Origin: an uncultured Eubacteriales bacterium
GTDB taxonomy: Bacteria > Bacillota > Clostridia > Peptostreptococcales > Anaerovoracaceae
Reading direction: 5' to 3'
NCBI GenBank assembly: GCA_900547295.1
Contig: URGK01000002.1
Location: 22,732 to 86,731, forward strand
DNA: 64,000 nucleotides
In this document: positions 4,052-48,341 of the stretch, piece after piece
Position numbering within the stretch: the first letter of the stretch is position 1
How the letters are laid out: the number at the start of each line of letters is the position of its first letter
Program-made: the position numbers and the translations under genes
Notes under the pieces: generated by a model
Seen by the model: the letters and a program-made list of their open reading frames with translations, nothing else
What the model was told of the DNA's origin: nothing
Database searches by the model: none

Positions 4052-4801
4052 TTATTTATTGTCCTTTACCATCATTTTTTTAAATGCAATCACCGCAAGC
4101 ACTGAAATTACCACGGCATATGCAATATCCGTAACAAGGTACATCCAAAAGCCTTCGTATTCGCCCGATACTGCCATTCTGCCCATACAGGTTGCAGGAT
4201 ACCACGGCAGGAATTTGCATACGGTCTCCAGACTTCCCATAGTTTCAAGAGGCATCCACGCGCCGCCCAGCACCGCGCTTATAGTTATGATTGCGCTTGA
4301 TACTCCCGGAGCCGACTTGTCCGACAGAATACTTCCAAACAGAATTCCGATAGCCGTCATAACAACTATAACAGGCAGATCCACCGCAAAGTTAAGCAGC
4401 ACGCCGCCAAAGCTGAGGCTCACACCTGTTGCTGCCGCAATTATGTATGATACTATAACGCATATAATTATCTGTAAATATCCGAGAATAATTCCCGGAA
4501 CTCCATACCCGATGATATAGTCTGAGGTTTTCATAGGTGAGGAATAAAGTCTTGAAAGCAGCGAGGTTGTCCTGTCCTTGCTTACAAGTATAGCCATATA
4601 AAGCATTACAAAGGCAAATGCAAATACTATTATTCCTGGCATAAGAACATCTATGTTAAACCAGTATGCATCAGGTGTATAATGCCCTATAAGCTGAAAC
4701 ATTCCTATCATAGCCACAGGGAAAATCACACAGAATATTATTCCCAGCGGGTCCCTTAATATCTCCTTTATGTTTCTTGATGCAAAGTTCCACGCTTTCA
4801 T
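4052..4801 (-). CDS. ABC-2 type transporter permease
   Basis: 6 predicted TM helices, 249 aa, start overlaps the ATPase stop (ATGA). Confidence 0.8.
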   Translation of the reverse strand: MKAWNFASRNIKEILRDPLGIIFCVIFPVAMIGMFQLIGHYTPDAYWFNIDVLMPGIIVFAFAFVMLYMAILVSKDRTTSLLSRLYSSPMKTSDYIIGYGVPGIILGYLQIIICVIVSYIIAAATGVSLSFGGVLLNFAVDLPVIVVMTAIGILFGSILSDKSAPGVSSAIITISAVLGGAWMPLETMGSLETVCKFLPWYPATCMGRMAVSGEYEGFWMYLVTDIAYAVVISVLAVIAFKKMMVKDNK

Positions 4802-5737: not shown

Positions 5738-5829
5738 AGGTTTACCTCCAGTTTTAAAAGTATAACTTGTATAACTAATTATACTTTTCACCCATACCTT
5801 TGTCAAGCAATTAAAAACAGAGCTGCATT

Positions 5830-6015
5830 TCACACTTTGCTCTGCTTAGCTCTGTTCAAGATTTCAAGTTCTTTTTTCTCTCTGCATTTCCTGCATATCA
5901 TATCGGAAATTATATCATCGCTTTGCAAAAATCCCTCACGTTTATACTCTGCTTCTCTTGTTCCCATAATCCTGCCGCACTGCGGACATATCACGTTTCT
6001 GGTTACTGTTATCAT
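5830..6015 (-). CDS. Small zinc-ribbon protein (61 aa), first gene of the AbrB-ABC-SDR operon
   Basis: MITVTRNVICPQCGRIMGTREAEYKREGFLQSDDIISDMICRKCREKK: two CxxC pairs (CPQC...CRKC). AGAGGT RBS 8 nt before the ATG at 6015; longer listed ORF (to 6075) lacks an RBS. Confidence 0.5.
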   Translation of the reverse strand: MITVTRNVICPQCGRIMGTREAEYKREGFLQSDDIISDMICRKCREKKELEILNRAKQSKV

Positions 6016-6075
6016 TCTCGTATACCTCTGTTTTACTGATATACAAAGTCTATATCCGCTGCTGTGAATTGTCAA

Positions 6076-6114
6076 TCACAAATGAGTGAAAGGAGCCCAA
6101 AAGAGCTCCTTTCC
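6076..6114 (-). terminator. Rho-independent terminator after surface-protein paralog 1
   Basis: Minus RNA GAAAGGAGCUCUUUUGGGCUCCUUUC (9-bp stem) then ACUCAUUUGUG. Confidence 0.5.
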
Positions 6115-6126
6115 TGTTAAAGTTAT

Positions 6127-9018
6127 TTATTTACTCCAAGTTCTCAATCCGTATTTACACTGTTTAAGAACTGTCTGTCCTGCTAAAGTATCTCCGCTGT
6201 ATACCATAGCCTTAGCCTTGTAGTAGTACTTCGTGCCTTTCTTGCCGGCAGTGTTGATGTATGTGTTTGTATCCTTGGTCTTAACAGCTTTGTATCCTGC
6301 AGCTTTCTTTGCTGATCTGTAGAACTTGTATTTAACTGTATATCCTGCATCTGTCAGCGCAGTTATATCTCCCGATACTACAGCTTTGATGTTCTTCTTT
6401 GATGTCTTTGATGTTCTTACTTTAAGATTAACTTCCTTAATCATGATATCTAACTGTTCAGCCATAGCCTTATCAGCCTCATCCTTAGCCATTACTGCAT
6501 ATTCTGAGAAGTGGCCTGTTGTAAAGGTGTATGTACCGTCTGCGTTCTTCTGTCCGTTTACTAATGTGTAGATACCGTTGTCATTGATGTATACACATAC
6601 AACATCCTTGGCTGCAAGCTCCTTGGACAGGTTAATTGTAACCTTGACATTACCGCCATTGAAGTCCTTAACAGCTCCGTTTGATGTTATAAGTTTCAGG
6701 TTTACATGGCAGATGTTTTCATCAGACTTAATGGTTTCGATTATCAGTCTGACAAAACCTGTATTTCCTGCCTGCGCTGCAACTGCATCAAGCGCAGTCT
6801 TGTCTAAATCAACTTTACCGTTATCAGTTTTAATAACCAGATTGGCATCTGTTTTTTCAGCCAGTTCCTTAACTGTCTTTTCAGGTATGCCGACTTCTGA
6901 TGATGCTACATTGTTATTACCTGCTGCATCAACGATGATTTCTTCTGATTTATTTTCTAATGCTTTTTCAACAATCTTGTCTGCTGTCTTGGCATCTACA
7001 GTTGTTTCAGCCTTATTGTCCTTAACAGCCGGAGTAAGGTCAGCAGTTGTATTCTTATCTGCAGGGTTGTTGGTTACGTTGTCTGTAGGGGTTGATGGTG
7101 TGTATGGTACAGGCCTAACTGTCCAAGCGTCACCACTCTTATCAGCATAATATCCTGAAGCTACATATGCACTAGGATCTGATGAGAATGTACCGCCTGT
7201 GATAGTAGCAGTTCCCTTATATTTTTCGCTATTATCATAACGATCACAAAGCACCTTCTGATTATCTTTACTTATATATGTACCTCCTGTTACTGTCAGT
7301 TCTCCAACAGCACGATTTTCAGCATATTTTGCAGTAAATAAAACTGCTTCAGCACTGTCATTTGCTTCAAAGCTACCACCGGAAAGATTAGCCTTGTGCC
7401 AGTTCATAATAACAAACTGCGAAGTATTAGAGAAAGATCCGCCGCTAACCGTCAACTCACCTAATTCATCATTTTTTACAGTATTAATACCGCCAGAAAA
7501 GCTTCCCCCGTTTATTTTTAATTTGGATGCGCTTTGACTTGCACTATCACCGCCATTACGGATCATACTTGAGAAGTGTCCTTTATTTGTAACATTAACA
7601 CCATTTTTGATGGTCATATTACCACCCTTATCATTCAAAATAGTGTAGAAGCTATTCTTACCGGCACTGTCCTTATTATTCTCTTCATCCTCTAAACTTC
7701 GAGTATAAGTACCTCCATTAAGTATAGCTGTACCATAGTTAACTAAAGCTGCTTTGCCGTGAGTTACATTGTCTACAGTACCAGCCTTATTTTCACTGGT
7801 ATCCTCAATAGTAAGTGTACCTCTATTAACAATTGTATGGCTACCACTATTTGTTATCTTATTTCCGTTAAGGTCAATAGTTGCAGTACAATCTGCTAGT
7901 ATTGCAACATCCTTAGTAGCATCTTTACCAAGCTTAATTGTAACATTAGCACTTTCTCCAAGATAATCTACTGCACTTAAATCAGAATATGTACCACCTG
8001 TGATAAAATTTTTCTTATCTTCACTATATATAGCATTAGTTCCACCCTTTATAGCTGTAAAGTTTCCACCAGATACTGCGATTTTTACTTTAGCTATGTT
8101 TTCAACACTGTTTTTTTGTGGATTACTCTCGTATAGCGCACTGAAACCCTTTATATCTCCACTAATAATTTTTACGTCAATTGGTAAACCTGTAGTGTGC
8201 TGTGCAATCGCAATTCCCGCACCATCAGTAGTCGAGCCATTACCATTAGGAGTTACTGTTTTAGGTGCACTGGTGCCTGTAATCTCTGTATTTTCTGATA
8301 CAGTAAGTTCTCCTGCACGAATTTCTATTCCAGTAGCTCCTGTTATCTTTGCGCCTTCAATATTCCATTTCGCATATCCTGCAGCATAAATTCCATCTCC
8401 TACTGACTCAATAGTTGCAGTTGATCCTATTTTAATATTTGGAACGGCTCCTGTTGTGGCTACAATTTGCCCATTTATATAAATTCCAGATCCCTTGTCA
8501 CCAGATGTATCAGCAAGACCTTCAAGCTTACCGTTTACTGTGGCATTAATACCGTAATTTGAACCCTTATTCTGATCAATAAAAAGAGCACTCCAACCTC
8601 TAAGTGTGATATTTTCTCCAACTATAACATTGCTGTGATTTGTTTCAGTTTGCTGTGATCCGCCATTTAAAATAACTGGTCCAAAATAAGGCTCAGCTTC
8701 AGATACAGTTCCAGTGCCTTTAAACTCTAAAGTCCCATTTTTAACAGTAAAATGTTTTTTAGAAGAAAATGATATATTCTTACCATTCATATCTATAGTT
8801 ATATTTTTGCCATTTTCTATAACAATGACTTTCCCAACATTTACCAAATCCTCTTCTAATCTAATATTTATATTTTGACCAGTAGTATTACTTAAAGCAT
8901 TATTAAACTCTTCTATGCTTTTTACATGAACTACTGTTTCCTCCGCAGCAAACACCCCTATAGGCATCATTGCCACTATCATAGCCATACTTATGACTAT
9001 AGCCAATAACTTCTTCAT
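6127..9018 (-). CDS. Large secreted repeat protein, paralog 1 (963 aa). Signal peptide, Gly/Thr/Asn-rich beta-helix-like repeats, conserved ~330 aa C-terminal module.
   Basis: N-terminus MKKLLAIVISMAMIVAMMPIGVFA is identical to paralog 2. Central region is low-complexity G/N/T-rich with recurring xGGxFSxx/NGGT motifs. The C-terminal ~330 aa (PYTPSTPTDNVTNN...KQCKYGLRTWSK) is ~85% identical to paralog 2 and contains an Fn3-like YKFYRS...KYYYKAKA module also found in the M23 peptidases of this window. GGAGGG RBS. No LPXTG, SLH or choline-binding anchor seen. Confidence 0.8.
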   Translation of the reverse strand: MKKLLAIVISMAMIVAMMPIGVFAAEETVVHVKSIEEFNNALSNTTGQNINIRLEEDLVNVGKVIVIENGKNITIDMNGKNISFSSKKHFTVKNGTLEFKGTGTVSEAEPYFGPVILNGGSQQTETNHSNVIVGENITLRGWSALFIDQNKGSNYGINATVNGKLEGLADTSGDKGSGIYINGQIVATTGAVPNIKIGSTATIESVGDGIYAAGYAKWNIEGAKITGATGIEIRAGELTVSENTEITGTSAPKTVTPNGNGSTTDGAGIAIAQHTTGLPIDVKIISGDIKGFSALYESNPQKNSVENIAKVKIAVSGGNFTAIKGGTNAIYSEDKKNFITGGTYSDLSAVDYLGESANVTIKLGKDATKDVAILADCTATIDLNGNKITNSGSHTIVNRGTLTIEDTSENKAGTVDNVTHGKAALVNYGTAILNGGTYTRSLEDEENNKDSAGKNSFYTILNDKGGNMTIKNGVNVTNKGHFSSMIRNGGDSASQSASKLKINGGSFSGGINTVKNDELGELTVSGGSFSNTSQFVIMNWHKANLSGGSFEANDSAEAVLFTAKYAENRAVGELTVTGGTYISKDNQKVLCDRYDNSEKYKGTATITGGTFSSDPSAYVASGYYADKSGDAWTVRPVPYTPSTPTDNVTNNPADKNTTADLTPAVKDNKAETTVDAKTADKIVEKALENKSEEIIVDAAGNNNVASSEVGIPEKTVKELAEKTDANLVIKTDNGKVDLDKTALDAVAAQAGNTGFVRLIIETIKSDENICHVNLKLITSNGAVKDFNGGNVKVTINLSKELAAKDVVCVYINDNGIYTLVNGQKNADGTYTFTTGHFSEYAVMAKDEADKAMAEQLDIMIKEVNLKVRTSKTSKKNIKAVVSGDITALTDAGYTVKYKFYRSAKKAAGYKAVKTKDTNTYINTAGKKGTKYYYKAKAMVYSGDTLAGQTVLKQCKYGLRTWSK

Positions 9019-9034
9019 TCGTTTTCCCTCCTCG

Positions 9035-9057
9035 AATAAATAAATAAATAAATAAAT
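9035..9057. repeat. (AAAT)5 microsatellite in 5' UTR of paralog 1
   Basis: aataaataaataaataaataaat directly read; lies between the leader terminator hairpin and the RBS. Confidence 0.9.
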
Positions 9058-9087
9058 TTGTTGCCTGTTACCTTTATTAAGTAACTT

Positions 9088-9124
9088 TAAATTAAAAAGA
9101 CAAGCTTCTGCCTGCCTTGCTGTC
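9088..9124 (-). terminator. Terminator-like hairpin + U-tract forming the expression platform of riboswitch copy 1
   Basis: Minus RNA GACAGCAAGGCAGGCAGAAGCUUGUC followed by UUUUUAAUUU, between the aptamer and the paralog 1 RBS. Confidence 0.5.
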
Positions 9125-9139
9125 GTAATAAATATTAGT

Positions 9140-9222
9140 CTGTATAACTGGCAGCCATACTCATTACGAGCTGCAGGCCCTATAGCTTTGCGCCCCTGTC
9201 TTTCGACAGATTTGCCCTTTTC
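9140..9222 (-). ncRNA. c-di-GMP-I (GEMM) riboswitch aptamer, copy 1
   Basis: Minus RNA ...AAAAGGGCAAAUCUGUCGAAAGACAGGGGCGCAAAGCUAUAGGGCCUGCAGCUCGUAAUGAGUAUGGCUGCCAGUUAUACAG. Matches the GEMM-I signature GGGCAAA-P1 stem-GAAA tetraloop-stem-GG(A/G)CGCAAAGC-P2 (compare Vc2 GGGCAAACCAUUCGAAAGAGUGGGACGCAAAGCCUCCGGCC...). Confidence 0.65.
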
Positions 9223-9237
9223 AATTTTTACCGTTTA

Positions 9238-9267
9238 ATTATACCCCTCCCCACGACGCTCTGTCAA
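9238..9267 (-). promoter_or_regulatory. Sigma-A promoter for riboswitch/paralog 1 (TTGACA-18-TATAAT)
   Basis: Minus strand TTGACAgagcgtcgtggggaggggTATAAT ~15 nt upstream of the aptamer 5' end. Confidence 0.55.
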
Positions 9268-9289
9268 CATAAACACATTCAGCATGCCT

Positions 9290-9348
9290 TCAAAAACAGA
9301 CGATCCGCCGATAAAATTATCAGCGGATCATCTGTTTATTTATTTATC
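9290..9348 (-). terminator. Bidirectional hairpin terminator after paralog 2
   Basis: acagacgatccgccgataaaattatcagcggatcatctgt imperfect 18-bp inverted repeat flanked by A-run/T-run. Confidence 0.5.
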
Positions 9349-9409
9349 CAATCAATCTATAAAGATTAATTAAGAAGGGTCTGATTTAAATCTACCTTGT
9401 TTCAGTTAT

Positions 9410-12109
9410 TTACTTACTCCAGGTTCTAGCTCCATACTTGCACTGTTTAAGAACTGTCTGTCCTACAAGCTTATCTCCGTCATATACAAGAGCCTTTGCC
9501 TTGTAGTAGTACTTGGTACCTTTCTTACCTGCAGTGTTGATGTATGTCTTGCCGGCTTTTGTTGCCTTTGCTACATACTTTGATGCTTTCTTTTCTGATC
9601 TGTAGAACTTGTACTTAACTGTATATCCTGCATCTGTCAATGCCTTAACATCTCCTGATACTACTGCCTTGATGTTCTTCTTTGCTGTCTTTGATGTTCT
9701 TACCTTAAGATTAACTTCCTTGATTAAGGTATTTAACTGTTCAGCTATTTTCTTGTCAGCCTCAGCTTTTGCCATTACAGCATATTCTGAGAAATGACCT
9801 GTTGTGAATGTGTATGTACCGTCTGCATTGAGAACCCCCTCTACCAATGTGTAGCTACCGTTGTCATCAATGTATACGCATACTAATTCCTTGGCTGCAA
9901 GCTCCTTATCAAGGTTAATTGTAACCTTGACATTACCGCCCCTGAAGTCTGTAACAGCGCCCTTTGATGTTACAAGCTTCAGATCCACATGGCAGATGTT
10001 TTCATCAGTCTTAACTGTTTCAACTGCAAGTTTAACAGTTCCGTCTGTTCCAGCCTGCTCTGCTACTGCTGCAAGGGCAGTCTTGTCTAAATCAACTTTA
10101 CCGTTGTCAGTTTTAATAACCAGACTGGCATCTGTTTTTTCAGCCAGTTCCTTAACTGTCTTTTCAGGTATAGCTACTTCTGATGAAGCTACAGTATTAT
10201 TGCCTGCTGCATCAACTATTACCTCTGTTGATTTGTTTTCTACTGCCTTGTCAACGATCTTGTCTGCTGTCTTGGCATCTACTGTTGTTTCAGCCTTGTT
10301 GTCCTTAACAGCCGGAGCAAGGTCAGCAGTTGTATTCTTATCTGTTGTATTATTGGTTACGTTGTCTGTAGGTGTTGATGGTGTGTATGGTCTGCCTACT
10401 GTATACGGACCATTACCTGTTACTATATATCCATCTGCTACATATGCTGTAGGATCTGATGAGAATGTACCGCCAGTTACTGACAACAAACACTTAGGAT
10501 CTTCGGGTTCTGTATCATAAAGTAATGCAATATCATTCAAAAACATACCGCCACTGACATTAACAATTGCTCCACCATAAGAGGAGTTTTTTACCACAGC
10601 CAATGCATATCCATTTGTTGATGAACCATTAAAATTTGCAACCTGTGTTTTTTCTGGTGCTGTATTATTAAATGTTCCACCCTTAATATCGAGTGTTCCG
10701 CCTTTAATTTCAATAGTACTTCCTTTGCCTGTACTATAATTTCCATTATTAATTACATATTTAGAATTTTTAGCAGCAAGATATAATTGTGCTTCAAACT
10801 CCCCATTATTAATAGTTATATTACTATTTTCATATGAGCCATTAGTATATACGTATCCCTTATATGTTCCATTATTTAATGTGGTTTCAGTATTATATAT
10901 TGAAAAAACCGAAAATTCTCCATCCAATACACCATTTTCTATAATAAGTGTACCATTATTCTGAACAGCAACTTGTTTACCTTTTATTGTACCATTTCCT
11001 GTTATTTTAAGTTTTGAATTTTCTCCAACTCGAATAGTTCTCACACAGCCTGTTTTATATGATACTTCTTTAGTATTCAAGTCAAGTGTTATATTTTTAT
11101 TTACTACAATGGTTTCATCTGTACTTATATCTTTTATAAGCTTTACAGTAGCTCCATCACTTGCAGCATCAATTGCTCCGGCAAGAGTTTTAAAACACTG
11201 TTCATCTATTGAGGCTACTGCATCTGCTGGATCTGTATTCCTTACAACAGTACCATCTGTTTTTAAAACATATCCATCTGCAATGTACGCTCTCACATCA
11301 CCTGAGAATGTGCCACCTCTAATAGCATTTTTCTTGGTAGAAACCTCACCATTAAATTTTCCACCTAAGATTTCAATATTTGATCCTTTTGCAGAAACTG
11401 CAGTCGGTCCAGAGATTTCTCCGTTTTTAATAGTTATTGTACTCATAGAACTTCCACAGATTGCAGTTATATAAGTTTCATTATCTGCTGATACCGCAGT
11501 GATTTCGCCTCCATTCATTTCAAAAGCTGCATTTGAGTTTCTAATGTTTACAGCAAAATTACCTCTTAAAGCAGTTGCTATTACTTTACCACCATTCATA
11601 ATGGCTTTTCCATTACCACCAATATAAATTGTGCTTCCAGCCTTAGCCATACCTTCACCGGTAATAATAGTTCCAGCTTCAATTGTCAGGCTTCCATTTC
11701 CTTCAACTGAAACAACTCTGCCTGATGTTCCTGTGTAACCCGAGCAGATTTTGCCACTGCCAATGCTGTCTTTAACTATTACGTTTCCCTTTATAAGTAG
11801 CGCTTGCTGGTTTACAGATGTATTAGTACCGCTAAGTATATGTCCGTTAAGGTCGATTGTCAGTTTTTTATTTTCCTCAATTGTAGTTGTCTTACCCGTA
11901 ACTGTAACATTATTTATTAGCTTTATAGTACTATTCTCTACCGCAGCATCAATAGCCTCCTGTAACGTATCATAATGTGTAGTGCCTATTGCTGCCTGAT
12001 GACTACAATTCTCTGCTGTACAATTCTCTGCTGTATCAGCAAACACCCCCATTGGCATCATTGCCACTATCATAGCCATACTTATGACTATTGCCAATAA
12101 CTTCTTCAT
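9410..12109 (-). CDS. Large secreted repeat protein, paralog 2 (899 aa)
   Basis: Same signal peptide (MKKLLAIVISMAMIVAMMPMGVFA) and same C-terminal module (PYTPSTPTDNVTNN...KQCKYGARTWSK) as paralog 1, divergent central beta-helix-like repeat region. Cys-containing N-terminal AENCTAENCS segment. GGAGGGTG RBS. Confidence 0.8.
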   Translation of the reverse strand: MKKLLAIVISMAMIVAMMPMGVFADTAENCTAENCSHQAAIGTTHYDTLQEAIDAAVENSTIKLINNVTVTGKTTTIEENKKLTIDLNGHILSGTNTSVNQQALLIKGNVIVKDSIGSGKICSGYTGTSGRVVSVEGNGSLTIEAGTIITGEGMAKAGSTIYIGGNGKAIMNGGKVIATALRGNFAVNIRNSNAAFEMNGGEITAVSADNETYITAICGSSMSTITIKNGEISGPTAVSAKGSNIEILGGKFNGEVSTKKNAIRGGTFSGDVRAYIADGYVLKTDGTVVRNTDPADAVASIDEQCFKTLAGAIDAASDGATVKLIKDISTDETIVVNKNITLDLNTKEVSYKTGCVRTIRVGENSKLKITGNGTIKGKQVAVQNNGTLIIENGVLDGEFSVFSIYNTETTLNNGTYKGYVYTNGSYENSNITINNGEFEAQLYLAAKNSKYVINNGNYSTGKGSTIEIKGGTLDIKGGTFNNTAPEKTQVANFNGSSTNGYALAVVKNSSYGGAIVNVSGGMFLNDIALLYDTEPEDPKCLLSVTGGTFSSDPTAYVADGYIVTGNGPYTVGRPYTPSTPTDNVTNNTTDKNTTADLAPAVKDNKAETTVDAKTADKIVDKAVENKSTEVIVDAAGNNTVASSEVAIPEKTVKELAEKTDASLVIKTDNGKVDLDKTALAAVAEQAGTDGTVKLAVETVKTDENICHVDLKLVTSKGAVTDFRGGNVKVTINLDKELAAKELVCVYIDDNGSYTLVEGVLNADGTYTFTTGHFSEYAVMAKAEADKKIAEQLNTLIKEVNLKVRTSKTAKKNIKAVVSGDVKALTDAGYTVKYKFYRSEKKASKYVAKATKAGKTYINTAGKKGTKYYYKAKALVYDGDKLVGQTVLKQCKYGARTWSK
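12005..12034. repeat. Perfect 15-bp tandem duplication (acaattctctgctgt x2) inside paralog 2 N-terminus
   Basis: Read directly; in-frame, encodes AENCT-AENCS. Confidence 0.9.
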
Positions 12110-12159
12110 TTAATCACCCTCCTTAACTCGGATATTTAATTACTCAGGGCTGCCTCTGC

Positions 12160-12190
12160 CATAATAAAAGGACAAGCCTTAACCTGTCCT
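12160..12190 (-). terminator. Terminator-like hairpin of riboswitch copy 2 expression platform
   Basis: Minus RNA GGACAGGUUAAGGCUUGUCC followed by UUUUAUUAU. Confidence 0.5.
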
Positions 12191-12214
12191 ACTGTCATTA
12201 TATATTCCTCATCT

Positions 12215-12297
12215 CTATGTAACTGGCAGCCATGCTCTATTGAGCTTCAGGCTCTGTAGCTTTGCATCCCTGTCTTTCGACAGATTTGCCCTCTTTT
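12215..12297 (-). ncRNA. c-di-GMP-I (GEMM) riboswitch aptamer, copy 2
   Basis: Minus RNA GGGCAAAUCUGUCGAAAGACAGGGAUGCAAAGCUACAGAGCCUGAAGCUCAAUAGAGCAUGGCUGCCAGUUACAUAG. Same architecture as copy 1 with compensatory changes (GCUC-GUAAU-GAGU vs GCUC-AAUA-GAGC). Confidence 0.65.
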
Positions 12298-12310
12298 GTT
12301 TTACTCTTAA

Positions 12311-12340
12311 AGTATACCCTCCCCCCTGGTGCTTTGTCAA
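12311..12340 (-). promoter_or_regulatory. Sigma-A promoter for riboswitch/paralog 2 (TTGACA-18-TATACT)
   Basis: Minus strand TTGACAaagcaccaggggggagggTATACT. Confidence 0.55.
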
Positions 12341-12349
12341 TAAAAAAAG

Positions 12350-12397
12350 AACCCTGTCGGATATAATCGTCAGAGTTCTCTTTTTTACCTTGATTAT
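12350..12397 (-). terminator. Bidirectional terminator at the end of the rnf operon
   Basis: agaaccctgtcggatataatcgtcagagttct hairpin flanked by A7 and T6 runs, 35 nt after rnfB stop. Confidence 0.55.
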
Positions 12398-12430
12398 GTT
12401 AATTAATACTTCTAAGCAATCACTGTATAA

Positions 12431-13261
12431 TTAAGCTTCTGCCGCTTTTGGCTCTGCAGGCTTTCTCTTTGCTCTCAGGTTTATGATAGCACCTGTAGGG
12501 CATTCCTTAGCGCAGAGTCCGCAGTTTTTGCATTTTTCAGGATCTATTGCAGCCAGATTGTTCTCAATTGTAACTGCTTCGAATTTGCAGACCTTTTCGC
12601 ATTTTTTGCAGCCTATGCAGCCGTTTGTGCAGGCTTTTCTTGTCTTTGCTCCCGGATCTGTAGAGTTACAGTGAACGATAACCTTGTTCTTTGCCGGAGC
12701 AATCCTGATAACATGGTTAGGGCATGCTTTTTCGCACATACCGCAGCCTACGCAGAGCTCTCTGTTTACAACCGCAACACCATCGCATACACTGATTGCG
12801 CCGTAAGCGCATACAGCCTCGCAGTCACCAAAGCCAAGACATCCGTGTGAACATACATTGACACCGCCAAACATCTGCTTTGCAGCCTTGCAGGTTGAAT
12901 GTCCCTGATATTCCATCAGGGTTTTTGCTGCTCCTGTGTTGCCGTTGCACATTACTACAGCAACCACAGGCTCTGCTGACTCTGCCTCAACGCCCAGAAC
13001 GCCGGCAAGTTTTGCCGCAAGGTCAGCGCCGCCTACAGGACATTTTGCCGTACCGATGCTCGGATCACCGCCAAGAGCGGCAGCATAGTCGTCACAGCCG
13101 GCAAAGCCGCAGGCTCCGCAGTTTGCTCCCGGAAGTTCATTTCTTAAGTTTGCAACTGTTTCATCAACCGGTACATAGAAAACTTTTGATGCGATAGTAA
13201 GAATAACGGCCAACACTAAACCGATTGCCATAACCAGTAATACCGGAATTAAAATATTCAT
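12431..13261 (-). CDS. rnfB: Rnf complex subunit B (ferredoxin-like, polyferredoxin)
   Basis: N-terminal TM, CGACGFAGCDDYAAAL motif, multiple CxxCxxC 4Fe-4S motifs. Confidence 0.9.
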   Translation of the reverse strand: MNILIPVLLVMAIGLVLAVILTIASKVFYVPVDETVANLRNELPGANCGACGFAGCDDYAAALGGDPSIGTAKCPVGGADLAAKLAGVLGVEAESAEPVVAVVMCNGNTGAAKTLMEYQGHSTCKAAKQMFGGVNVCSHGCLGFGDCEAVCAYGAISVCDGVAVVNRELCVGCGMCEKACPNHVIRIAPAKNKVIVHCNSTDPGAKTRKACTNGCIGCKKCEKVCKFEAVTIENNLAAIDPEKCKNCGLCAKECPTGAIINLRAKRKPAEPKAAEA

Positions 13262-13279
13262 CTCTTTCGCCTCCTCATT

Positions 13280-13849
13280 CTATACCAGTCCGCCGAATCC
13301 CATAAATGCAAGGGACAGGAAAGCAGCTGAAACCAATGTGATAGGTACACCCTGGAAAGCTTTAGGAATAGCCTCGTTGCCTTCAAGCTTCATTCTCATT
13401 CCTGAGAAAAGAACCATTGCAAGCAGGAAGCCGATTCCCGCACCGGCAGAGTTTACTAATGCCTGAGCATAGTTGTAACCCTCATCAATATTTGAAATAC
13501 ACACACCTAAAACTGCGCAGTTTGTAGTTATCAGCGGCAGATAAACTCCCAGCGATCTGTGAAGCGCCGGTATGAATTTTTTGAGCGCCATCTCTACAAA
13601 CTGAACAAGCGCAGCTATAATCAGTATGAATACAATTGTCTGCAGATAACCGATTCCCAGTTTGTCAAGGATAAGCATAATCGGCCATGTTGCGGCAGTT
13701 GCAAGAACCATTACGAAAATTACCGCAACACCCATTCCGACTGAGGAATCTAGTTTTTTGGAAACACCAAGGAACGGACATATACCGAGGAATTGAGCCA
13801 GTACATAGTTGTTCACAAGGATAATACCTACTAAAATAGTGAAATACAT
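13280..13849 (-). CDS. rnfA: Rnf complex subunit A
   Basis: 189 aa polytopic membrane protein, RnfA/NqrE family sequence; position in rnfCDGEAB order. Confidence 0.9.
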   Translation of the reverse strand: MYFTILVGIILVNNYVLAQFLGICPFLGVSKKLDSSVGMGVAVIFVMVLATAATWPIMLILDKLGIGYLQTIVFILIIAALVQFVEMALKKFIPALHRSLGVYLPLITTNCAVLGVCISNIDEGYNYAQALVNSAGAGIGFLLAMVLFSGMRMKLEGNEAIPKAFQGVPITLVSAAFLSLAFMGFGGLV

Positions 13850-14559
13850 TATGCTTCAGCTCCTTTCTTTATCTCTGCTTCAAGCGCTTCTATGCATTTT
13901 TCCTGCTGGCAGATGGAAGCCATTGCGCAGCCCCTGCAGTCAAAGCTGCCCTTAACACCTTTGCCCTTAGTGAAGTGATTGATTGCCGCAATCATAATCG
14001 CATATACGAAGAATCCGCCCGGAGCCAGCGCTATGATAAGCATTGGGTGAACGCTGAGCCAAGGAAGCGCAATTCCGAAGATTGTGCCTGCGCCTATGAT
14101 TTCTCTGATAGCGCCCATAATTCCAAGCGCCAGTGTAAATCCAAGACCCATTCCGATACCGTCTAAAGCGGAATCCAGAGCGTTGTTCTTTGATGCGAAC
14201 ATCTCGGCTCTTCCGAGTATGATACAGTTTACTACTATCAGAGGTATGAACAGTCCCAGTGAGTCATAAAGTGACGGTACAAACGCCTGCAGTACAAACT
14301 GTACTACGGTCACAAAGCCTGCAATTACTACGATATAGCAAGGTATTCTCACTTTGTCGGGTATAATCTTTGCAAGCAGTGAAATAACTATATTCGAGCA
14401 GATCAGTACTGCCATTGCGGAAACACCCATTCCAAGACCGTTTAATGCCGAGCTTGTGGTTGCCAGTGTAGGACATGTTCCGAGAAGGAGCACCAGTACC
14501 GGGTTTTCCTTAATTATGCCTTTGGTTAATATGGCGAGTTTACTTACTTTGTTTTCCAT
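13849..14559 (-). CDS. rnfE: Rnf complex subunit E
   Basis: 236 aa RnfE/NqrD family membrane protein; ATGA overlap with rnfA. Confidence 0.9.
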   Translation of the reverse strand: MENKVSKLAILTKGIIKENPVLVLLLGTCPTLATTSSALNGLGMGVSAMAVLICSNIVISLLAKIIPDKVRIPCYIVVIAGFVTVVQFVLQAFVPSLYDSLGLFIPLIVVNCIILGRAEMFASKNNALDSALDGIGMGLGFTLALGIMGAIREIIGAGTIFGIALPWLSVHPMLIIALAPGGFFVYAIMIAAINHFTKGKGVKGSFDCRGCAMASICQQEKCIEALEAEIKKGAEA

Positions 14560-15128
14560 TAGTTAGCACCTCCCACTTCCTTGTATTGTTCAAGCGCTGC
14601 GCATACACCGTAATGTACCGCATTTGATGATATTGTAGCGCCGCTGACATGAGTAACGTTTGTATCATCTTTAGCTGTAAATGCACTGTAGCTGTCAAGT
14701 CCCACATACTGTTCCAGATACGAAGGCTCCTGCGCCTTGGTGCCAAGACCCGGAGTATCAGCATGTGCAGTAACCTTAACGCCTGTAATGCAGCCGTCAG
14801 TATCTATACCTACCATTTCGGTAAGCAGTCCGCCGAAGGACTTGGATTTAACGGTAACAACCATACCTGTGTCATTGTCGGCAATATAGCAGTCTGTAAC
14901 GAAAACCTTGTCGGCTTCGAGGACAACCAGATCGCCGTCATAAGCTGTAAATGAGTCTGCTGAAGGCAGAAGCTCAGCTCTTGCCTCGTCTGCCGCCTTA
15001 ATTGAGTTCTGTTCAATTATAGGGGCTGTGATTGAGTTAATGTATGCAAGCGCACCTGTGATAACAAGGCAGATTACTACAAGAACAAGTGATGGTGCAA
15101 TATATTCTCTGAATTTATTACTTTTCAT
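14559..15128 (-). CDS. rnfG: Rnf complex subunit G (FMN-binding)
   Basis: N-terminal TM anchor, FMN-binding motif THVSGATISS. Start 15128 preferred (GGAGG upstream); listed ORF start 15146 is possible. Confidence 0.85.
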   Translation of the reverse strand: MKSNKFREYIAPSLVLVVICLVITGALAYINSITAPIIEQNSIKAADEARAELLPSADSFTAYDGDLVVLEADKVFVTDCYIADNDTGMVVTVKSKSFGGLLTEMVGIDTDGCITGVKVTAHADTPGLGTKAQEPSYLEQYVGLDSYSAFTAKDDTNVTHVSGATISSNAVHYGVCAALEQYKEVGGAN

Positions 15129-16095
15129 TTTTCTTTGCACCTCCATACATTCTTTTCTGACAGAAGTTATCTATTAACGGAGTAACTATATTCATTAACA
15201 GTATTGAGAATGAAACTCCTTCAGGATACTGGCCGTACAGCCTTATCAGCATTGTGATAACACCGCAGCCTATGCCGAATATAACTTTGCCCATAGGAAG
15301 TATCGGCGTTGTAACATAGTCTGTTGCCATAAAGAAGGCACCGAGCATAACGCCGCCTGCAAGTACATGGAATACTGCCATCTGAAGCGCGTTTCCGTCG
15401 CCTGTTGCAGCATAGTATATAAGCGCAAATACAAATACTGTTCCGATAAAGCATGCCGGAATTATAGGACTTATAATCTTTCTCCAGATGAGGAACAGTC
15501 CTCCGATAAGCAGCATCAGGGCGCTTACTTCACCCATTGAACCGCCTATGTATCCCATAAACATATCCATATTTGACGGAAGCTCTCCGCCGCCCTCTGC
15601 AAGTATGCCCAGCGGAGTTGCGCCTGTCTGCGCATCTGCTCCTGTGAAAGGAACAGGCCATGTTGTCATTTCTGTTGCAAATGCTATAAACAGCACTATT
15701 CTTGCTGTGATAGCAGGGTTTACAAGGTTTTTGCCTATGCCGCCGTAAAGCTGCTTAACTATGATGATAGCTACAAAGCAGCCTACTATTGCAATCCAGT
15801 AAGGCAGACCTGACGGCACGTTGAATGCAATCAGAACGCCTGTTACCGCAGCACTTAAATCGCCTACTGTCTGAGGTTTTTTCATAAGCTTGTTGTATGC
15901 CCATTCGAAGAACATACAGGACACAAGGCAAACCAGTGTAAGAGCTATAACTCTCGGTCCGAATACATATATGCTCATTGCAAATGACGGAGCAAGTGCA
16001 ATCAGAACCATCAGCATAATTCTGGTGGTATCAGTGTTTGATACTATATGAGGTGCTGATGAAACTGTTAAATTACTGTATATTTTCTTGTCCAT
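15118..16095 (-). CDS. rnfD: Rnf complex subunit D
   Basis: Polytopic membrane protein with DAQTGATPLG motif (RnfD/NqrB flavinylation region). Confidence 0.9.
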   Translation of the reverse strand: MDKKIYSNLTVSSAPHIVSNTDTTRIMLMVLIALAPSFAMSIYVFGPRVIALTLVCLVSCMFFEWAYNKLMKKPQTVGDLSAAVTGVLIAFNVPSGLPYWIAIVGCFVAIIIVKQLYGGIGKNLVNPAITARIVLFIAFATEMTTWPVPFTGADAQTGATPLGILAEGGGELPSNMDMFMGYIGGSMGEVSALMLLIGGLFLIWRKIISPIIPACFIGTVFVFALIYYAATGDGNALQMAVFHVLAGGVMLGAFFMATDYVTTPILPMGKVIFGIGCGVITMLIRLYGQYPEGVSFSILLMNIVTPLIDNFCQKRMYGGAKKNEK

Positions 16096-17405
16096 TACTT
16101 AATTCCAGCCTCCTTTACTATTGCTTTTCCAAGCTTGTTCATAAAGCTGAGAGGTCTTCTTGCAGGGCAGATATATGAGCAGCTGCCACATTCCATGCAC
16201 TGCATTACCTGCAGATTGGAAAGCGCCTGCGCATCCTTTGCCTCATATGCCTTGGCCAGTGCCGTAGGTATCAGGCCGAAAGGACAGGCTCTGTGACATC
16301 TGCCGCAGTTGATGCAGGCAGTTTCTTCTTTTACTCCTGCCTTTTCTTTGGAGAAGGCCAGTATCGCATTGTTGTTTTTAACAACAGGCATTTCATCTGA
16401 TACTATGGCTCTGCCCATCATAGGTCCTCCCATAAGGATTTTTCTGGGCTCCTGTTTGTATCCGCCGCAGAATTCTATGACATCACAAATTCTGGCACCG
16501 ATAGGAACTATTACGTTCTTTGGCTGGGCTACAGCATCTCCGTCTACGGTAATTCTCTTTGAAACAAGAGGCATACCTGTTCTGAAATATTTGCCTACAA
16601 ATGCTATTGTGGTGACATTTGATAAAATGACACCGAGCTCTGCAGGAAGCACACCTGCGTTCATTTTCTTGCCTGTAATCTCATATACGAGAACTCTTTC
16701 GGCTCCCTTAGGGTATCTTGCCTGCAGTTTGAAAGTATGAATATTGGTTATACCTTTTGATGCAAGCAGTTTGTCAATGTGCTCGATAGCATCCGGTTTG
16801 TTCTCTTCGATACCGATATATCCCTCATCAAGACCTATATATTTCATAACCAGCTGGCAGCCGGAAATAAGATCCTCCGCATCCTCAAGCATTGCTCTGT
16901 GGTCAGAGGTAATGAACGGTTCGCACTCTGCCGCATTGACGATAAGTGTATGAACGTCATCGATATTCTTAGGGTTAAATTTAATATGTGTAGGGAATGA
17001 AGCTCCTCCAAGGCCTACCAGACCGCTGTCTCTGATTGCTTTTATAAATTCAGGCAGATCCTTAGCCTCAGGTACTTTAATTCCTTCATAAGGTTCCTGC
17101 TTTTTGTCTGCTTCAATTACAACAAGTGTGTCTGTTCCTCCCATAGCTGATCTCTGTTCTTCGATTCCTGCCACGGTCCCGGAAACACTTGAATAAATAG
17201 GGGCACTTACAAAAGCATCTACATCTCCGATAAGCTGGCCGACTTTAACGTAGTCGCCCTTCTGCACCAGCGGCTTGCACGGCGCTCCAATGTGCTGAGA
17301 CATAGATATTTTTACAACATCAGGTACAGGCATTACTTCGGTTGCACTGCCGGCAGTGTTCTTGTAATGACTCACGTGAATGCTGTGTAAATGTTTTCGA
17401 CTCAT
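16095..17405 (-). CDS. rnfC: Rnf complex subunit C (NADH-binding, 2x[4Fe-4S])
   Basis: CINCGRCHRACP and CMECGSCSYICP ferredoxin motifs; RnfC N-terminal domain. Start 17405 (GGAAGG RBS) preferred over listed 17438. Confidence 0.9.
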   Translation of the reverse strand: MSRKHLHSIHVSHYKNTAGSATEVMPVPDVVKISMSQHIGAPCKPLVQKGDYVKVGQLIGDVDAFVSAPIYSSVSGTVAGIEEQRSAMGGTDTLVVIEADKKQEPYEGIKVPEAKDLPEFIKAIRDSGLVGLGGASFPTHIKFNPKNIDDVHTLIVNAAECEPFITSDHRAMLEDAEDLISGCQLVMKYIGLDEGYIGIEENKPDAIEHIDKLLASKGITNIHTFKLQARYPKGAERVLVYEITGKKMNAGVLPAELGVILSNVTTIAFVGKYFRTGMPLVSKRITVDGDAVAQPKNVIVPIGARICDVIEFCGGYKQEPRKILMGGPMMGRAIVSDEMPVVKNNNAILAFSKEKAGVKEETACINCGRCHRACPFGLIPTALAKAYEAKDAQALSNLQVMQCMECGSCSYICPARRPLSFMNKLGKAIVKEAGIK

Positions 17406-17542
17406 TATTGTGAGACCTTCCTTTCTAAAAATATACAAAAATACTCTTTACATCATACTACAAACTCAAACAAAAATCCATACTTTTGCGACAATTATGG
17501 CTAATTGGAGTACAGATAATTTTTTCCGCCTAGCACTTTGGT

Positions 17543-26928: not shown

Positions 26929-26975
26929 AAGGTCTGTATACGCAGCATAGACTGCGCACACAGACCTTGTTTTTA
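26929..26975. terminator. Bidirectional terminator between MerR gene and convergent secreted-protein operon
   Basis: aaggtctgtatacgcagcatagactgcgcacacagacctt hairpin + T5. Confidence 0.65.
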
Positions 26976-27905
26976 TTGTATATAGAACTGGTTGTCGCTG
27001 AATTTATAGATATAGTTACCTCTTGCAAGTTTCTTGTTCTCATAGTAGCTGTGATAAAATCCCAGATAGTATGTATCTCCCGCAAAGAACCCGTTCTCAA
27101 GCTCATACCCGCAATTGACCTTAATGCGGCATTTCAGCTTGCCGCTTTTGTCATACAGGCTCAGATAGCTTGGCAGGCTTCTTACAGAGGTGCTCTCCTG
27201 AGATACGATATCTCCGTTTAGCATATTAAGCCCCGCATATATCGTATAACTTTTTTTAGCCGAAGTCTTTATAAGCTCAAGAGGTCTGAATTCCCTGTCA
27301 AGCATTATCATACCTTTGATACCTCTGACCCTTACATAATAGCAGTTGTTCTCGCTGTCATAGGTAATGGCGTTATACCCGGAGGTTTCTGTCTGCACAT
27401 CCTCCGAAAGTCCGTGCAGAAATACCGGAAGTTCTATTTTGATATTCCTTTTGACCTTGAGTGTATCGGGATTGATTACGGCTATGGTATCCGGTACGCC
27501 GGTAAGGTGTATTGCTATTATCTCTCCAGTACGGTCATTATATGTAAGATCGTTTCCGTGATGAATTTTCAGCGCTGATGATACCTTAACCAATTTAAAA
27601 TCCTTTAGCCTCACCTTTGCTATTTTGCATTTTTCTACAGCGCGGTTGTAAAGAATATAGTATGCGTTTTCTCCATCGCTGCAGGCTCCCTGAAATGTAT
27701 CATACCCAAAGAGTTTTTCTCCTGCGGCAGCTCTCAGGTTGTATGTACCCGCAGAACCAAACCTTATAATCTTCCCTGTCATTTCGTTATAGGTTTCGTT
27801 TTCTATGCCCGCCGTAATGTTTTTTTGAATGGTCACAGCATCCGCTGTATACGGTATCCCCGATATTATAACTAATGCAAGCAGTATAACACAAAATCTT
27901 CTCAT
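26973..27905 (-). CDS. Secreted hypothetical protein (310 aa)
   Basis: Signal peptide MRRFCVILLALVIISGIPYTADA; no recognisable motif; last gene of a three-gene secreted operon. Confidence 0.6.
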   Translation of the reverse strand: MRRFCVILLALVIISGIPYTADAVTIQKNITAGIENETYNEMTGKIIRFGSAGTYNLRAAAGEKLFGYDTFQGACSDGENAYYILYNRAVEKCKIAKVRLKDFKLVKVSSALKIHHGNDLTYNDRTGEIIAIHLTGVPDTIAVINPDTLKVKRNIKIELPVFLHGLSEDVQTETSGYNAITYDSENNCYYVRVRGIKGMIMLDREFRPLELIKTSAKKSYTIYAGLNMLNGDIVSQESTSVRSLPSYLSLYDKSGKLKCRIKVNCGYELENGFFAGDTYYLGFYHSYYENKKLARGNYIYKFSDNQFYIQ

Positions 27906-27921: not shown

Positions 27922-28563
27922 TTAATCCAGTTTCTCTCTGTTTCTCTTTTTCTTTTTTACTGCTGCAATTATGCTTACTGTTATAAGCAGTACCGCAATA
28001 ATTCCTGCCGATATTTCAAGCAGTCTGCTGTTTTTCTGATGCTGTGTATCCTCTGACTTTACAGTATCGGTACCGTTTTTATCACTGCTGCTGTTGTCTG
28101 CACTGCCGCTGTCTCCGTCTCCGGTATTGCCTGCAGGCTCATTGGCTGAAATTTCTTCTATCGTTATGTTCCTGGTGACATACGGCGTATTCATCGCCTT
28201 GCCGTCAAGGTCATAGGCCTCCTCTGTGCTGATTGCAACAGAAGCTGCTCCCGTTTTGAGCGCTTTGAATTTGAGATTAAACTCCACAGTCTTACCATTA
28301 TCAGAGCTGCCTTTAAGCTTGATAATACCGCCGTCGCCCGTACTTGAGCCTCCGGATATGTACTCCAGCAGATCTGTATCATAGCTGACGCTGCCTTTTA
28401 TTGAGTCAAGATAATCCGAACTGTATTTTACGTCTACAGTGAAGTTTTCGCCTGCTGAAATATTACTGCTGCTCTCTGCATTTAAATTGAGTGATGCTGC
28501 AAACGCACTCTGAGGTACTGCAGTAATTATACACAGTATCAGCACTGCTATGAATTTTTTCAT
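27922..28563 (-). CDS. Cohesin-like domain protein with C-terminal TM anchor
   Basis: Signal peptide, then ~140 aa resembling type I cohesin (GENFTVDVKYSS...SVSYDTDLLEYISGGS vs CipA GDTVRIPVRFSG...FVYSYDPNVLEIIEIEPG), Ser/Asp-rich linker, C-terminal hydrophobic helix + KKKKRNREKLD. Confidence 0.5.
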   Translation of the reverse strand: MKKFIAVLILCIITAVPQSAFAASLNLNAESSSNISAGENFTVDVKYSSDYLDSIKGSVSYDTDLLEYISGGSSTGDGGIIKLKGSSDNGKTVEFNLKFKALKTGAASVAISTEEAYDLDGKAMNTPYVTRNITIEEISANEPAGNTGDGDSGSADNSSSDKNGTDTVKSEDTQHQKNSRLLEISAGIIAVLLITVSIIAAVKKKKRNREKLD

Positions 28564-33181: not shown

Positions 33182-33883
33182 CTATACCTCCGCTATGAGT
33201 TTCGGGCAGGCCCTGAGATAATCAAGGCTTACCAGCATATATCTGGCACCGTTAAATACCGCCTGAAGTCCGTTTTTGAATACTTCAGGCCCGTGAAGAT
33301 GTCCGTACACGACAGTCTCCGCTCCGTACTCCGTAAACAGCTCCGTAAATCCGGAGTTCTGAAATTTCTCGTTTGTAGGCGGATAATGCAGCACCCCTAT
33401 AATCCGCTCATATCCCGCCTGTTTTGCCGCTTTGAGTGAAGCCTCCACTCTAAGCAGCTCTCTTTTGTATATTTTTTCGTCCTGCGGGGTGAACCCGTCA
33501 TTTCCCGGGCATATCCAGCCGCGGCTTCCGCATATGGCGTATCCGTCTGCGGCATAGAAATGGTTCTGCAGGAAGTATACATCATCATAAAGCTGATTGA
33601 GCTTTGTAATGCCGGTCCACCATAAATCGTGGTTGCCCTTGATTATGACCTTGCGGCCCGGCAGCTGATGTATCCACTCAAAATCGGCATAAGCCTCATC
33701 TTTAGTCAGTCCCCACGATATGTCCCCCGCAATTATAACGGTGTCGGTTTCCCTGACTGTGTTTATCCAGTTTTCTTTAAGTCTCTCCGTATGGTTTGCC
33801 CATAACGGACCGAATATATCCATTGGCTTATCTACTCTCTCGTCAAAAGAAAGATGCAGATCACCTATTGCGTATATGCTCAT
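33182..33883 (-). CDS. Calcineurin-like metallophosphoesterase
   Basis: IGDLHLS, GDISW, GNHD, GHLH motifs. Confidence 0.8.
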   Translation of the reverse strand: MSIYAIGDLHLSFDERVDKPMDIFGPLWANHTERLKENWINTVRETDTVIIAGDISWGLTKDEAYADFEWIHQLPGRKVIIKGNHDLWWTGITKLNQLYDDVYFLQNHFYAADGYAICGSRGWICPGNDGFTPQDEKIYKRELLRVEASLKAAKQAGYERIIGVLHYPPTNEKFQNSGFTELFTEYGAETVVYGHLHGPEVFKNGLQAVFNGARYMLVSLDYLRACPKLIAEV

Positions 33884-45330: not shown

Positions 45331-45858
45331 TTATTCTTGTGTAAATTCCCCGTACCATTCAATAACTGGTCTGAGCTTCATTCTGTCTGTAAAGTCCGCA
45401 CCTTTATCAAGTATTTTAATAAGCTCCTTTGCCTTTTTTCTCTCGGCTTCATCGGTTCCTGTTTCGGCGGTCTTTTTTAATACGTTTCCGAACACCATAA
45501 GCATTTTTTTCTGAACGCCCGTAAGCTTTGAAAAATCCATACCGCCTCGCAGATAAAAAACCGGCATATCGTCAGCTATGCTGTTTTTGGCTCTGATGTC
45601 CTTCATGATACTATCTGCATTTTCGGAAATTCCGCAGGGACATACAGCTCTGATATTGTATCTTCTGGCTGCTTTTTTGAGTCCCTCTATTTTGTTTGCG
45701 CTTATCCAGCCCATATATATGACGTCATCGCTTTTTGAAAGTGATTTTTTGTCCTCTCCAAGTCCCGCGTTATATGCTGGAAGTGACAGCTTCTCTGACA
45801 GCATCTGCGCATATTTTCTCGTAAAGCCCGTATTTGATGTATATATTATCGCTTTCAT
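45331..45858 (-). CDS. Flavodoxin-like protein
   Basis: MKAIIYTSNTGFTRKYAQ N-terminus typical of flavodoxin FMN-binding loop; 175 aa. Confidence 0.65.
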   Translation of the reverse strand: MKAIIYTSNTGFTRKYAQMLSEKLSLPAYNAGLGEDKKSLSKSDDVIYMGWISANKIEGLKKAARRYNIRAVCPCGISENADSIMKDIRAKNSIADDMPVFYLRGGMDFSKLTGVQKKMLMVFGNVLKKTAETGTDEAERKKAKELIKILDKGADFTDRMKLRPVIEWYGEFTQE

Positions 45859-45859
45859 T

Positions 45860-46078
45860 TTAATCCTCTCCTTCGTCAGGTATATATTCTAATATATCTC
45901 CGGGCTGGCAGTCAAGTGCTCTGCATATACCGTTGAGAGTTGTAAATCTGATGGCGCTTATTTTGCCTGTCTTGATATTGGAAAGGTTGACATTTGAAAT
46001 GCCCACCTCCTCTGCCAGACTGTTTAATGACATCTTGCGGTCTGCCATCATACGGTCAAGTCTTAATACTATAGCCAT
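45860..46078 (-). CDS. XRE-family helix-turn-helix transcriptional regulator (YozG-like, 72 aa)
   Basis: LDRMMADRKMSLNSLAEEVGISNVNLSNIKTGK HTH; the small Cro/C1 regulator that pairs with DUF2975 genes. Confidence 0.8.
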   Translation of the reverse strand: MAIVLRLDRMMADRKMSLNSLAEEVGISNVNLSNIKTGKISAIRFTTLNGICRALDCQPGDILEYIPDEGED

Positions 46079-48285: not shown

Positions 48286-48341
48286 GTTTTTTCATACCAT
48301 ATAAAAACTGTAATATACGGTTCATATAAACTAATGGAACT

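Follow-up and report, generated by a model that had tools for sequence, protein, structure and literature searches.

The region at positions 12161-12340 on the minus strand of the 64,000-nt stretch of DNA analysed (the window) is a complete riboswitch leader, forming the 5' leader of an independent transcription unit. Its aptamer, designated copy 2 and located at 12215-12300 on the minus strand, almost certainly belongs to a known family, the class I c-di-GMP riboswitches (c-di-GMP-I or GEMM-I). The leader as a whole probably functions by stopping transcription of a gene for a secreted protein when c-di-GMP is high. A paralogous leader, copy 1, is present at 9090-9267 on the same strand.

The whole window was scanned against Rfam at gathering thresholds with cmscan, and three matches were obtained, two of which were to RF01051. 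Copy 2 scored 62.0 bits (E=1e-9) and the copy-1 aptamer, at 9140-9226 on the minus strand, 64.3 bits (E=2.7e-10), the gathering score of the family being 35. Both matches extended over model positions 1-87 of 87. The copy-2 match was not truncated, and RF01051 was preferred over the other families of its clan. The first-pass annotation had proposed a second c-di-GMP-I copy at this position and had named a cmsearch with RF01051 as the check, and the proposal is confirmed by this score. The family membership of copy 2 is accepted mainly because of the model score and not because of covariation in an alignment. A match of this length and significance, on the right strand, positioned between a promoter and an ORF and conserved upstream of homologous genes in many assemblies, effectively refutes the idea that the likeness to GEMM-I arose by chance and that the sequence does not act as an RNA, a reading which was given next to no weight. 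The third Rfam match was a glycine riboswitch (RF00504, 50.3 bits; 48183-48286, minus strand), which is unrelated to c-di-GMP-I and lies upstream of a gene of the sodium:alanine symporter family (ORF 46679-48103, minus strand), an association of a known kind.

The helices of the family were present in copy 2, as assessed by cmscan and by RNAalifold on 14 homologous leaders. The first aptamer hairpin, located by cmscan and the alignment at 12264-12289 (minus strand), reads GC..UCUGUC-GAAA-GACAGG..GC, with a GNRA tetraloop (GAAA) as its cap and with the closing GC/GC pairs of the family. The second hairpin (12221-12261, minus strand) contains a candidate receptor-like internal loop, CCUGAAG/CAUGG, one nucleotide longer than the consensus CUAAg/uAuG, and the apical stem GCUC-AAUA-GAGC. 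Around the ligand site, the family is characterised by GGCAAA, GACGCAAAGC and a C after the second hairpin. Copy 2 has, by sequence, GGGCAAA and GCAAAGC, with AC behind AGUU, and is predicted to bind the ligand. Departures from the consensus were seen at two conserved places. One is GAUGC for GACGC (U for C). The other is the A of column 58, for which the Rfam register gives A.C (58:86) and the RNAalifold register A-U (58:84). The aptamer sits in the 5' UTR, between the promoter and the gene, and is accompanied by an expression platform.

A pattern scan identified a sigma-70 promoter for copy 2, TTGACA-18-TATACT at 12340..12311 on the minus strand, with 11/12 consensus matches, so that the retention of the promoter, which had been noted from the first reading, was correct. 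The -35 hexamer TTGACA (12335-12340) was kept in all aligned homologous leaders, and the -10 hexamer TATACT (12311-12316) was present as TATACT or TATAAT in all of them. Transcription would be expected to start at approximately 12303-12305. The terminator scan located an intrinsic terminator at 12161-12190 (minus strand), AGGACAGGU-UAAG-GCUUGUCCU followed by UUUAUUAU; the hairpin occupies 12190..12169 and the U tract is directly 3' of it. The ribosome-binding site (RBS) AAGGAGGG at 12117-12124 (minus strand) was invariant across all homologous leaders, and each of the two leaders in the window ends with AAGGAGGG or GAGGAGGG and an ATG. The regulated gene (9410-12109, minus strand) has its ATG at 12109, with the ORF starting 105 nt past the aptamer, and encodes a secreted protein of 899 aa. 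In the copy-1 leader, the promoter TTGACA-18-TATAAT at 9267..9238 showed 12/12 consensus matches, the terminator hairpin was found at 9118..9097 with a U-rich tract behind it, and the gene downstream (6127-9018, minus strand) encodes a paralog of 963 aa. The promoters of the two copies were the two best promoter-like sites in the interval 5800-12600.

Upstream of copy 2 lies an RnfB-like ORF (12431-13261), and a terminator-like hairpin with a T tract (12343-12379, minus strand; AGAACUCUG...CAGGGUUCU then U7) closes the rnf operon and sets it apart from the copy-2 riboswitch promoter. This hairpin was read from the sequence, its long loop falling outside the criteria of the terminator scan. A second hairpin with a T tract closes the copy-2 gene just 5' of the copy-1 promoter. 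As both promoters are preceded in this way, each of the two genes constitutes its own transcription unit. The rnfCDGEAB-like operon directly upstream is complete (12431-17438, minus strand), and the order rnfB, riboswitch, surface-protein gene was kept at loci L004, L005, L009, L011 and L016 of other assemblies. In copy-1-type leaders, an (ATTT)n repeat of variable copy number was observed between the terminator and the RBS (9035-9057, minus strand, in the window); the window and L012 have 5 full units each, L008 has 7, and L001, L006 and L016b have 3. An 81-aa ORF located 3' of the copy-1 gene (5830-6075, minus strand) gave a sub-threshold match to DUF7351 only, and has its own promoter-like site, TTGACA-17-TAGACT, at 6075..6047.

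The first-pass annotation had regarded structure-preserving covariation between the two copies as strong evidence for a functional RNA. The strings that it quoted were all found on the minus strand, including the apical hairpins GCUC-GUAAU-GAGU (copy 1) and GCUC-AAUA-GAGC (copy 2) and the junctions GGCGCAAAGC (copy 1) and GAUGCAAAGC (copy 2). Over the 87 nt of the aptamer, 71 positions were identical and 16 different, and 14 of these 16 were unpaired in the family structure, being located in the 5' flank, junction, bulge, internal loop, apical loop and 3' flank. No aptamer pair was changed on both sides, and the differences can therefore not be called compensatory. The junction difference (GGCGC versus GAUGC) was composed of two independent single departures, at unpaired positions, from GACGC, which is the consensus in the family as well as among the homologous leaders, and does not preserve any pairing. 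The difference in the apical hairpin does keep the pairing, as had been stated, but it is one-sided, the basal pair of the apical stem going from G.U to G-C. The other paired difference, G to A at column 58, changes G-C to A.C in the Rfam register or G.U to A-U in the RNAalifold register.

The terminator of copy 2 had been described as re-formed from different sequence; it proved to be the same homologous hairpin as in copy 1, with 15/22 positions identical, one two-sided change (A-U to G-C), which was the only one in the pairwise comparison, and two one-sided changes. Pairwise covariation between the copies was accordingly rejected as evidence, there being no two-sided change in the aptamer. 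The real signal of the comparison is that the substitutions avoid the helices: only 2 of the 16 fell within the 42 paired positions of the 87, where 7.7 were expected (binomial P=0.003). The earlier conclusion that copy 2 is a functional-looking RNA nevertheless holds, on the basis of the model score, the position in the 5' UTR and the aptamers found upstream of homologous genes.

Loci for comparison were sampled from the contigs of eleven protein relatives, with a further three found by protein similarity (genome contigs) and three by DNA pattern (metagenome contigs), these last being the only loci recovered with a 24-nt leader pattern over metagenome contigs. Of the 11 homologous genes looked up in other assemblies, 10 were preceded by an RF01051 match at or above the gathering score, and the homologous aptamers ended 102-130 nt before the start codon. 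At locus L016, the layout was the same as in the window (rnfB, riboswitch, gene, riboswitch, gene). Eighteen leaders, representing 14 distinct sequences from aptamer to terminator, were aligned (alignment A2). Standard pairs were present in 97.6% of the cells of the aptamer-plus-terminator structure, compared with 30-47% in a control in which the 3' partners were slid by 1-3 columns. When RNAalifold was given no structure, the same helices and the terminator were recovered.

Four pairs were changed on both sides over the 14 leaders, two of them in the first hairpin (P2; L010 and L011) and two in the terminator, and this count was equalled in at most 3 of 500 shuffles. The 6-bp first hairpin was paired in 100% of cells and the terminator in 96%; the helices of the second hairpin were paired in 94-100% of cells, with one-sided changes only. 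The region is thus conserved among related leaders, as the first reading had anticipated, and true covariation appeared only once more distant homologous leaders were added to the two copies. The covariation in this alignment is modest, because the aligned sequences are closely related. Some of the leaders were mosaics. That of L015 combined an apical loop of one type with a spacer and terminator of the copy-2 type, and those of L006 and L007 combined a copy-2-like promoter and 5' flank with a copy-1-like aptamer and platform.

The homologous leaders also bear on whether copy 2 is a decaying duplicate which has lost binding or switching and serves as a constitutive attenuator. The GAUGC variant was seen only in copy 2 (W_c2) and L014, the other type-B leaders keeping GACGC, and it would be compatible with decay, as would the A.C at column 58 in the Rfam register and two properties of the platform described below, the lack of an anti-terminator above the shuffled control and a minimum free energy (MFE) fold that contains the terminator without ligand. 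Against this, copy 2 still scores 62 bits over the full model, A58 is pairable with U84 in the RNAalifold register, and the differences from copy 1 avoid the helices. In addition, other assemblies yielded four more distinct sequences of the same leader type, A58 included (L009, L013, L014 and L016a), and the type is therefore maintained. Decay was consequently considered improbable, and copy 2 is treated below as a switch.

The copy-2 terminator starts 25 nt beyond the aptamer and has no nucleotides in common with it, so that a ligand-bound aptamer is compatible with the terminator; folding with the aptamer enforced always contained the terminator, as is expected of an OFF switch. Anything that blocks the terminator would have to be made of aptamer nucleotides, which the ligand withdraws, and this corresponds to an OFF-switch architecture. 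According to the proposed mechanism, the mRNA would start at the sigma-70 promoter and its first ~90 nt would fold as a GEMM-I aptamer, composed of the GAAA-capped hairpin and of the second hairpin with its receptor-like loop, and this would be followed ~25 nt downstream by the self-contained terminator, and then by the RBS and the surface-protein gene. Binding of c-di-GMP would hold the aptamer closed and leave the terminator free to form, turning the gene OFF. At low c-di-GMP, without the ligand lock, aptamer nucleotides (candidates are AAGAGGGCAA and AGCCUG) would pair with the terminator strands, block termination and permit read-through. The OFF direction is favoured on these grounds, with somewhat less confidence than the reading as a whole.

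In the case of surface adhesins, c-di-GMP more often turns expression ON, and this general tendency counts against an OFF switch. If copy 2 were an ON switch, the terminator would form without ligand, c-di-GMP would promote read-through, and the protein would be made at high c-di-GMP. The predicted default of copy 2 without ligand, which is the terminator fold, would agree with such a switch, and there are precedents in Bc2 of Bacillus thuringiensis, which is located upstream of a collagen adhesin gene (PMC4933901), and in the one of 12 Clostridioides difficile class I riboswitches that is induced by c-di-GMP (PMC3649979). Structural support for it was absent from the leader studied here. The terminator lies wholly outside the aptamer, nothing in the ligand-bound aptamer competes with it, and all candidate competitors are aptamer nucleotides sequestered by the ligand. 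With the aptamer closed, no conserved part of the spacer that could base-pair with a strand of the terminator was seen on inspection of the alignment, and the architecture of copy 1 is clearly of the OFF type. An ON switch was therefore judged unlikely.

Anti-terminators were sought in both copies by folding. In copy 1, the 5' half of the second hairpin and the apical loop were predicted to pair with the spacer and the terminator 5' strand (GCCUGC/GCAGGC). Before the terminator 3' strand is made, this structure lay 20 kcal/mol above the aptamer fold in stability, a value equalled by 1 of 300 shuffled tails. In copy 2, the advantage of alternative folds over the aptamer fold was 6.2 kcal/mol, which 100 of 300 shuffled downstream sequences also reached, and the energetic case for an anti-terminator was rejected for this copy as being the same as for shuffled tails. 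According to these predictions, a specific anti-terminator has statistical support in copy 1 and not in copy 2. The MFE structure of copy 2 was an aptamer-like fold from 92 to 128 nt; an AGCCUG/CAGGUU competitor appeared only at 134-140 nt, and at full length the structure consisted of aptamer and terminator even without ligand, so that thermodynamics alone would predict constitutive termination.

The best conserved candidate for an anti-terminator strand in copy 2 was AAGAGGGCAA in the 5' junction (12286-12295, minus strand), whose complement is provided by the 3' strand of the terminator together with the U tract (12166-12175). This pairing was present in 97% of cells over the 14 leaders, with one-sided changes only, and the predicted duplex (-11.4 kcal/mol) approached the terminator stem (-12.3 kcal/mol). 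As 0.5% of random 12-mers do as well and approximately 110 windows were tested, a chance pairing is possible at this rarity. The second candidate strand, AGCCUG in the second hairpin (12248-12253, minus strand), has its complement, CAGGUU, at 12181-12186, within the 5' strand and loop of the terminator. It was paired in 87% of cells in the type-A register (columns 59-64 with 125-130), which is one column off the copy-2 pairing, and it was not above the shuffled control in copy 2. A pairing of the apical loop with the spacer, which extends over 13 bp in copy 1, was rejected as a general anti-terminator, since it was confined to copy-1-type leaders (70% of cells paired overall) and was disrupted both in copy 2 and in L015, a recombinant.

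Inspection of the 5' and 3' flanks of copy 2 found no convincing complement for a P1 helix closing the aptamer; copy 1 does form a P1 helix with the spacer in the aptamer-enforced fold. The terminator strands of copy 2 (12169-12190) resemble the strands of its first hairpin (12269-12284, minus strand), with GGACAGG/CUUGUCC in the former and GACAGG/UCUGUC in the latter, so that strand exchange is conceivable on paper. Among the upstream partners for the 3' strand of the terminator, the 3' strand of the first hairpin was the best in copy-1-type leaders (-12.0 kcal/mol).

Another pairing was noted beyond the terminator. In the MFE structure of the full 5' UTR, GGCAGCC at 12148-12154 (minus strand) forms 7 bp with GGCUGCC of the aptamer (12226-12232) and encloses the terminator. 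Control might on this basis be partly or wholly post-transcriptional, with the pairing altering mRNA stability or access to the RBS, and GCAGCC was kept in type B and C leaders though the surrounding bases differ. Leaders of type A, copy 1 among them, were however without the complement and have a local hairpin there instead, no covariation of the pairing was seen, and a strong canonical terminator with a U tract was present in every leader. Such a mode of control was regarded as very unlikely, and termination of transcription remains the preferred reading.

The 899-aa protein has a signal peptide and two predicted right-handed beta-helix domains, and ends with a conserved C-terminal module and a basic tail. 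It gave no sequence match in Pfam, NCBIfam-style models or the PDB, and no record was found on look-up for the exact protein. An AlphaFold2 model (mean pLDDT 80) showed stacks of short strands at residues 40-290 and 300-570, then mixed alpha/beta domains to ~780 and a low-confidence lysine-rich tail. In a fold search against the PDB, the best match of the model was pertactin (E=1.3e-3), followed by tailspikes and antigen 43; all were weak, and all are right-handed beta-helices. The 899-aa and 963-aa proteins have an identical signal peptide and a near-identical C-terminal region of ~330 aa, and their central regions are unrelated in sequence. Both are read as secreted beta-helix surface proteins, probably associated with the wall. 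In a comparison of the copy-1 protein with P0040, the match was nearly perfect for the first ~700 aa and distinctly poorer for the last ~260 aa, and the sequences of such mosaic proteins suggest recombination between paralogs.

A search of a metagenome protein collection gave 1601 relatives of the 899-aa protein; among the 120 matches listed none was named, and most were without a Pfam domain. On genome contigs, relatives were found in an uncultured Clostridia metagenome-assembled genome (MAG) from Hadza stool and, more distantly, in Emergencia timonensis, the nearest named relative found. In E. timonensis SN18 (L003, 4129-11005; homologous leader at 4129-4210), a c-di-GMP-I aptamer and terminator head an apparent operon. 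Its products are a 224-aa Lgt-like membrane protein, a surface protein of 1273 aa (CHB_HEX_C_1, Flg_new_2) and a homolog of 703 aa, which has its C-terminal module in common with the window proteins. This species can be cultivated and could be used for experiments. Family members without a riboswitch were also encountered (L018, 2417-5622; L019, 5587-8895; L006, 4775-7618), and in L018 and L019 a divergently transcribed HTH_3 regulator was present in place of the riboswitch.

No gene with a GGDEF, EAL or HD-GYP domain was found among the ORFs scanned in the window, a point that counts against the favoured reading. For three of these ORFs (27922-28563, 33182-33883 and 33887-35140), the scan consisted of NCBIfam only and gave no hits; in the scan for c-di-GMP turnover, ORFs 41387-42679, 45331-45858, 46056-46517 and 26973-27905 had no Pfam match at E<=1e-8.

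The anti-terminator of copy 1 is predicted to be much more stable than that of copy 2, and the two genes may therefore respond at different c-di-GMP levels. A tentative extension, considered rather unlikely, is that the adjacent leaders are not redundant, that their diverged platforms (predicted at ~20 versus ~6 kcal/mol) would shut off the two variable beta-helix proteins at different c-di-GMP levels, and that recombination of leaders, signal peptides and C-terminal modules would produce a riboswitch-graded choice of surface coat.

For riboswitch biology, little is gained from copy 2, as the family, the structure, the OFF logic in Clostridia and the duplication of leaders were already established. 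In the literature searched, no description of this lineage and gene family as a context for c-di-GMP-I was found. The observations may be of use for annotation, in that a large secreted beta-helix family known only from metagenomes would be marked as controlled by c-di-GMP, and they suggest a role of this family in the switch between motile and attached states in a lineage of gut Clostridia related to Emergencia. Further work might be worthwhile on one aspect, the large difference predicted between the platforms, together with the mosaic leaders and genes. If the set-points truly differ, the two leaders would be a small natural case in which a threshold is tuned solely through the expression platform.

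The class, architecture, likely logic and duplication of copy 2 all have direct precedents. Its likeness to the types of RF01051, Vc2 of Vibrio cholerae and Cd1 (Cdi1_3) upstream of flgB in C. difficile, consists in the full-length match to the family model, the GAAA-capped first hairpin, a candidate receptor-like loop in the second hairpin and the conserved GGCAAA and GCAAAGC junctions. As in Cd1, the copy-2 aptamer is located in a 5' UTR with an intrinsic terminator behind it (PMC3649979). Copy 2 differs from the types by the U of GAUGC, by A58 and by a receptor loop that exceeds the consensus by one nucleotide. Its host is an uncultured gut Clostridia bacterium, and the product of its gene is a beta-helix surface protein that is uncharacterised.

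Bc2 of B. thuringiensis, a class I ON switch, precedes cap, the gene for a collagen adhesion protein, and has terminated transcripts of ~121 nt (PMC4933901). In the features given there, copy 2 is similar in having a class I aptamer, a terminator-based platform and an adhesin-like surface gene. The length of ~121 nt would imply a Bc2 terminator close to, or overlapping, the aptamer. In copy 2, by contrast, the terminator stands apart from the aptamer and has its end ~140 nt from the start, an arrangement that speaks for an OFF switch.

Another close parallel is provided by C. difficile, in which 11/12 class I riboswitches are OFF switches, with premature termination when c-di-GMP is raised (PMC3649979). 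Its genome harbours the duplicated class I leaders Cdi1_8 to Cdi1_11, which are 88-93% identical, and Cdi1_12 is located upstream of the exported protein CD2830 (PMC3649979; reviewed in PMC11477304). As in that species, several paralogous c-di-GMP-I leaders per genome are found upstream of secreted or unknown proteins. The C. difficile duplicates act as OFF switches by termination, and by analogy the same direction would apply to copy 2. Unlike them, the two copies in the window are adjacent, their platforms differ strongly in predicted anti-terminator stability, and each drives one member of a mosaic family with a common signal peptide and C-terminal module.
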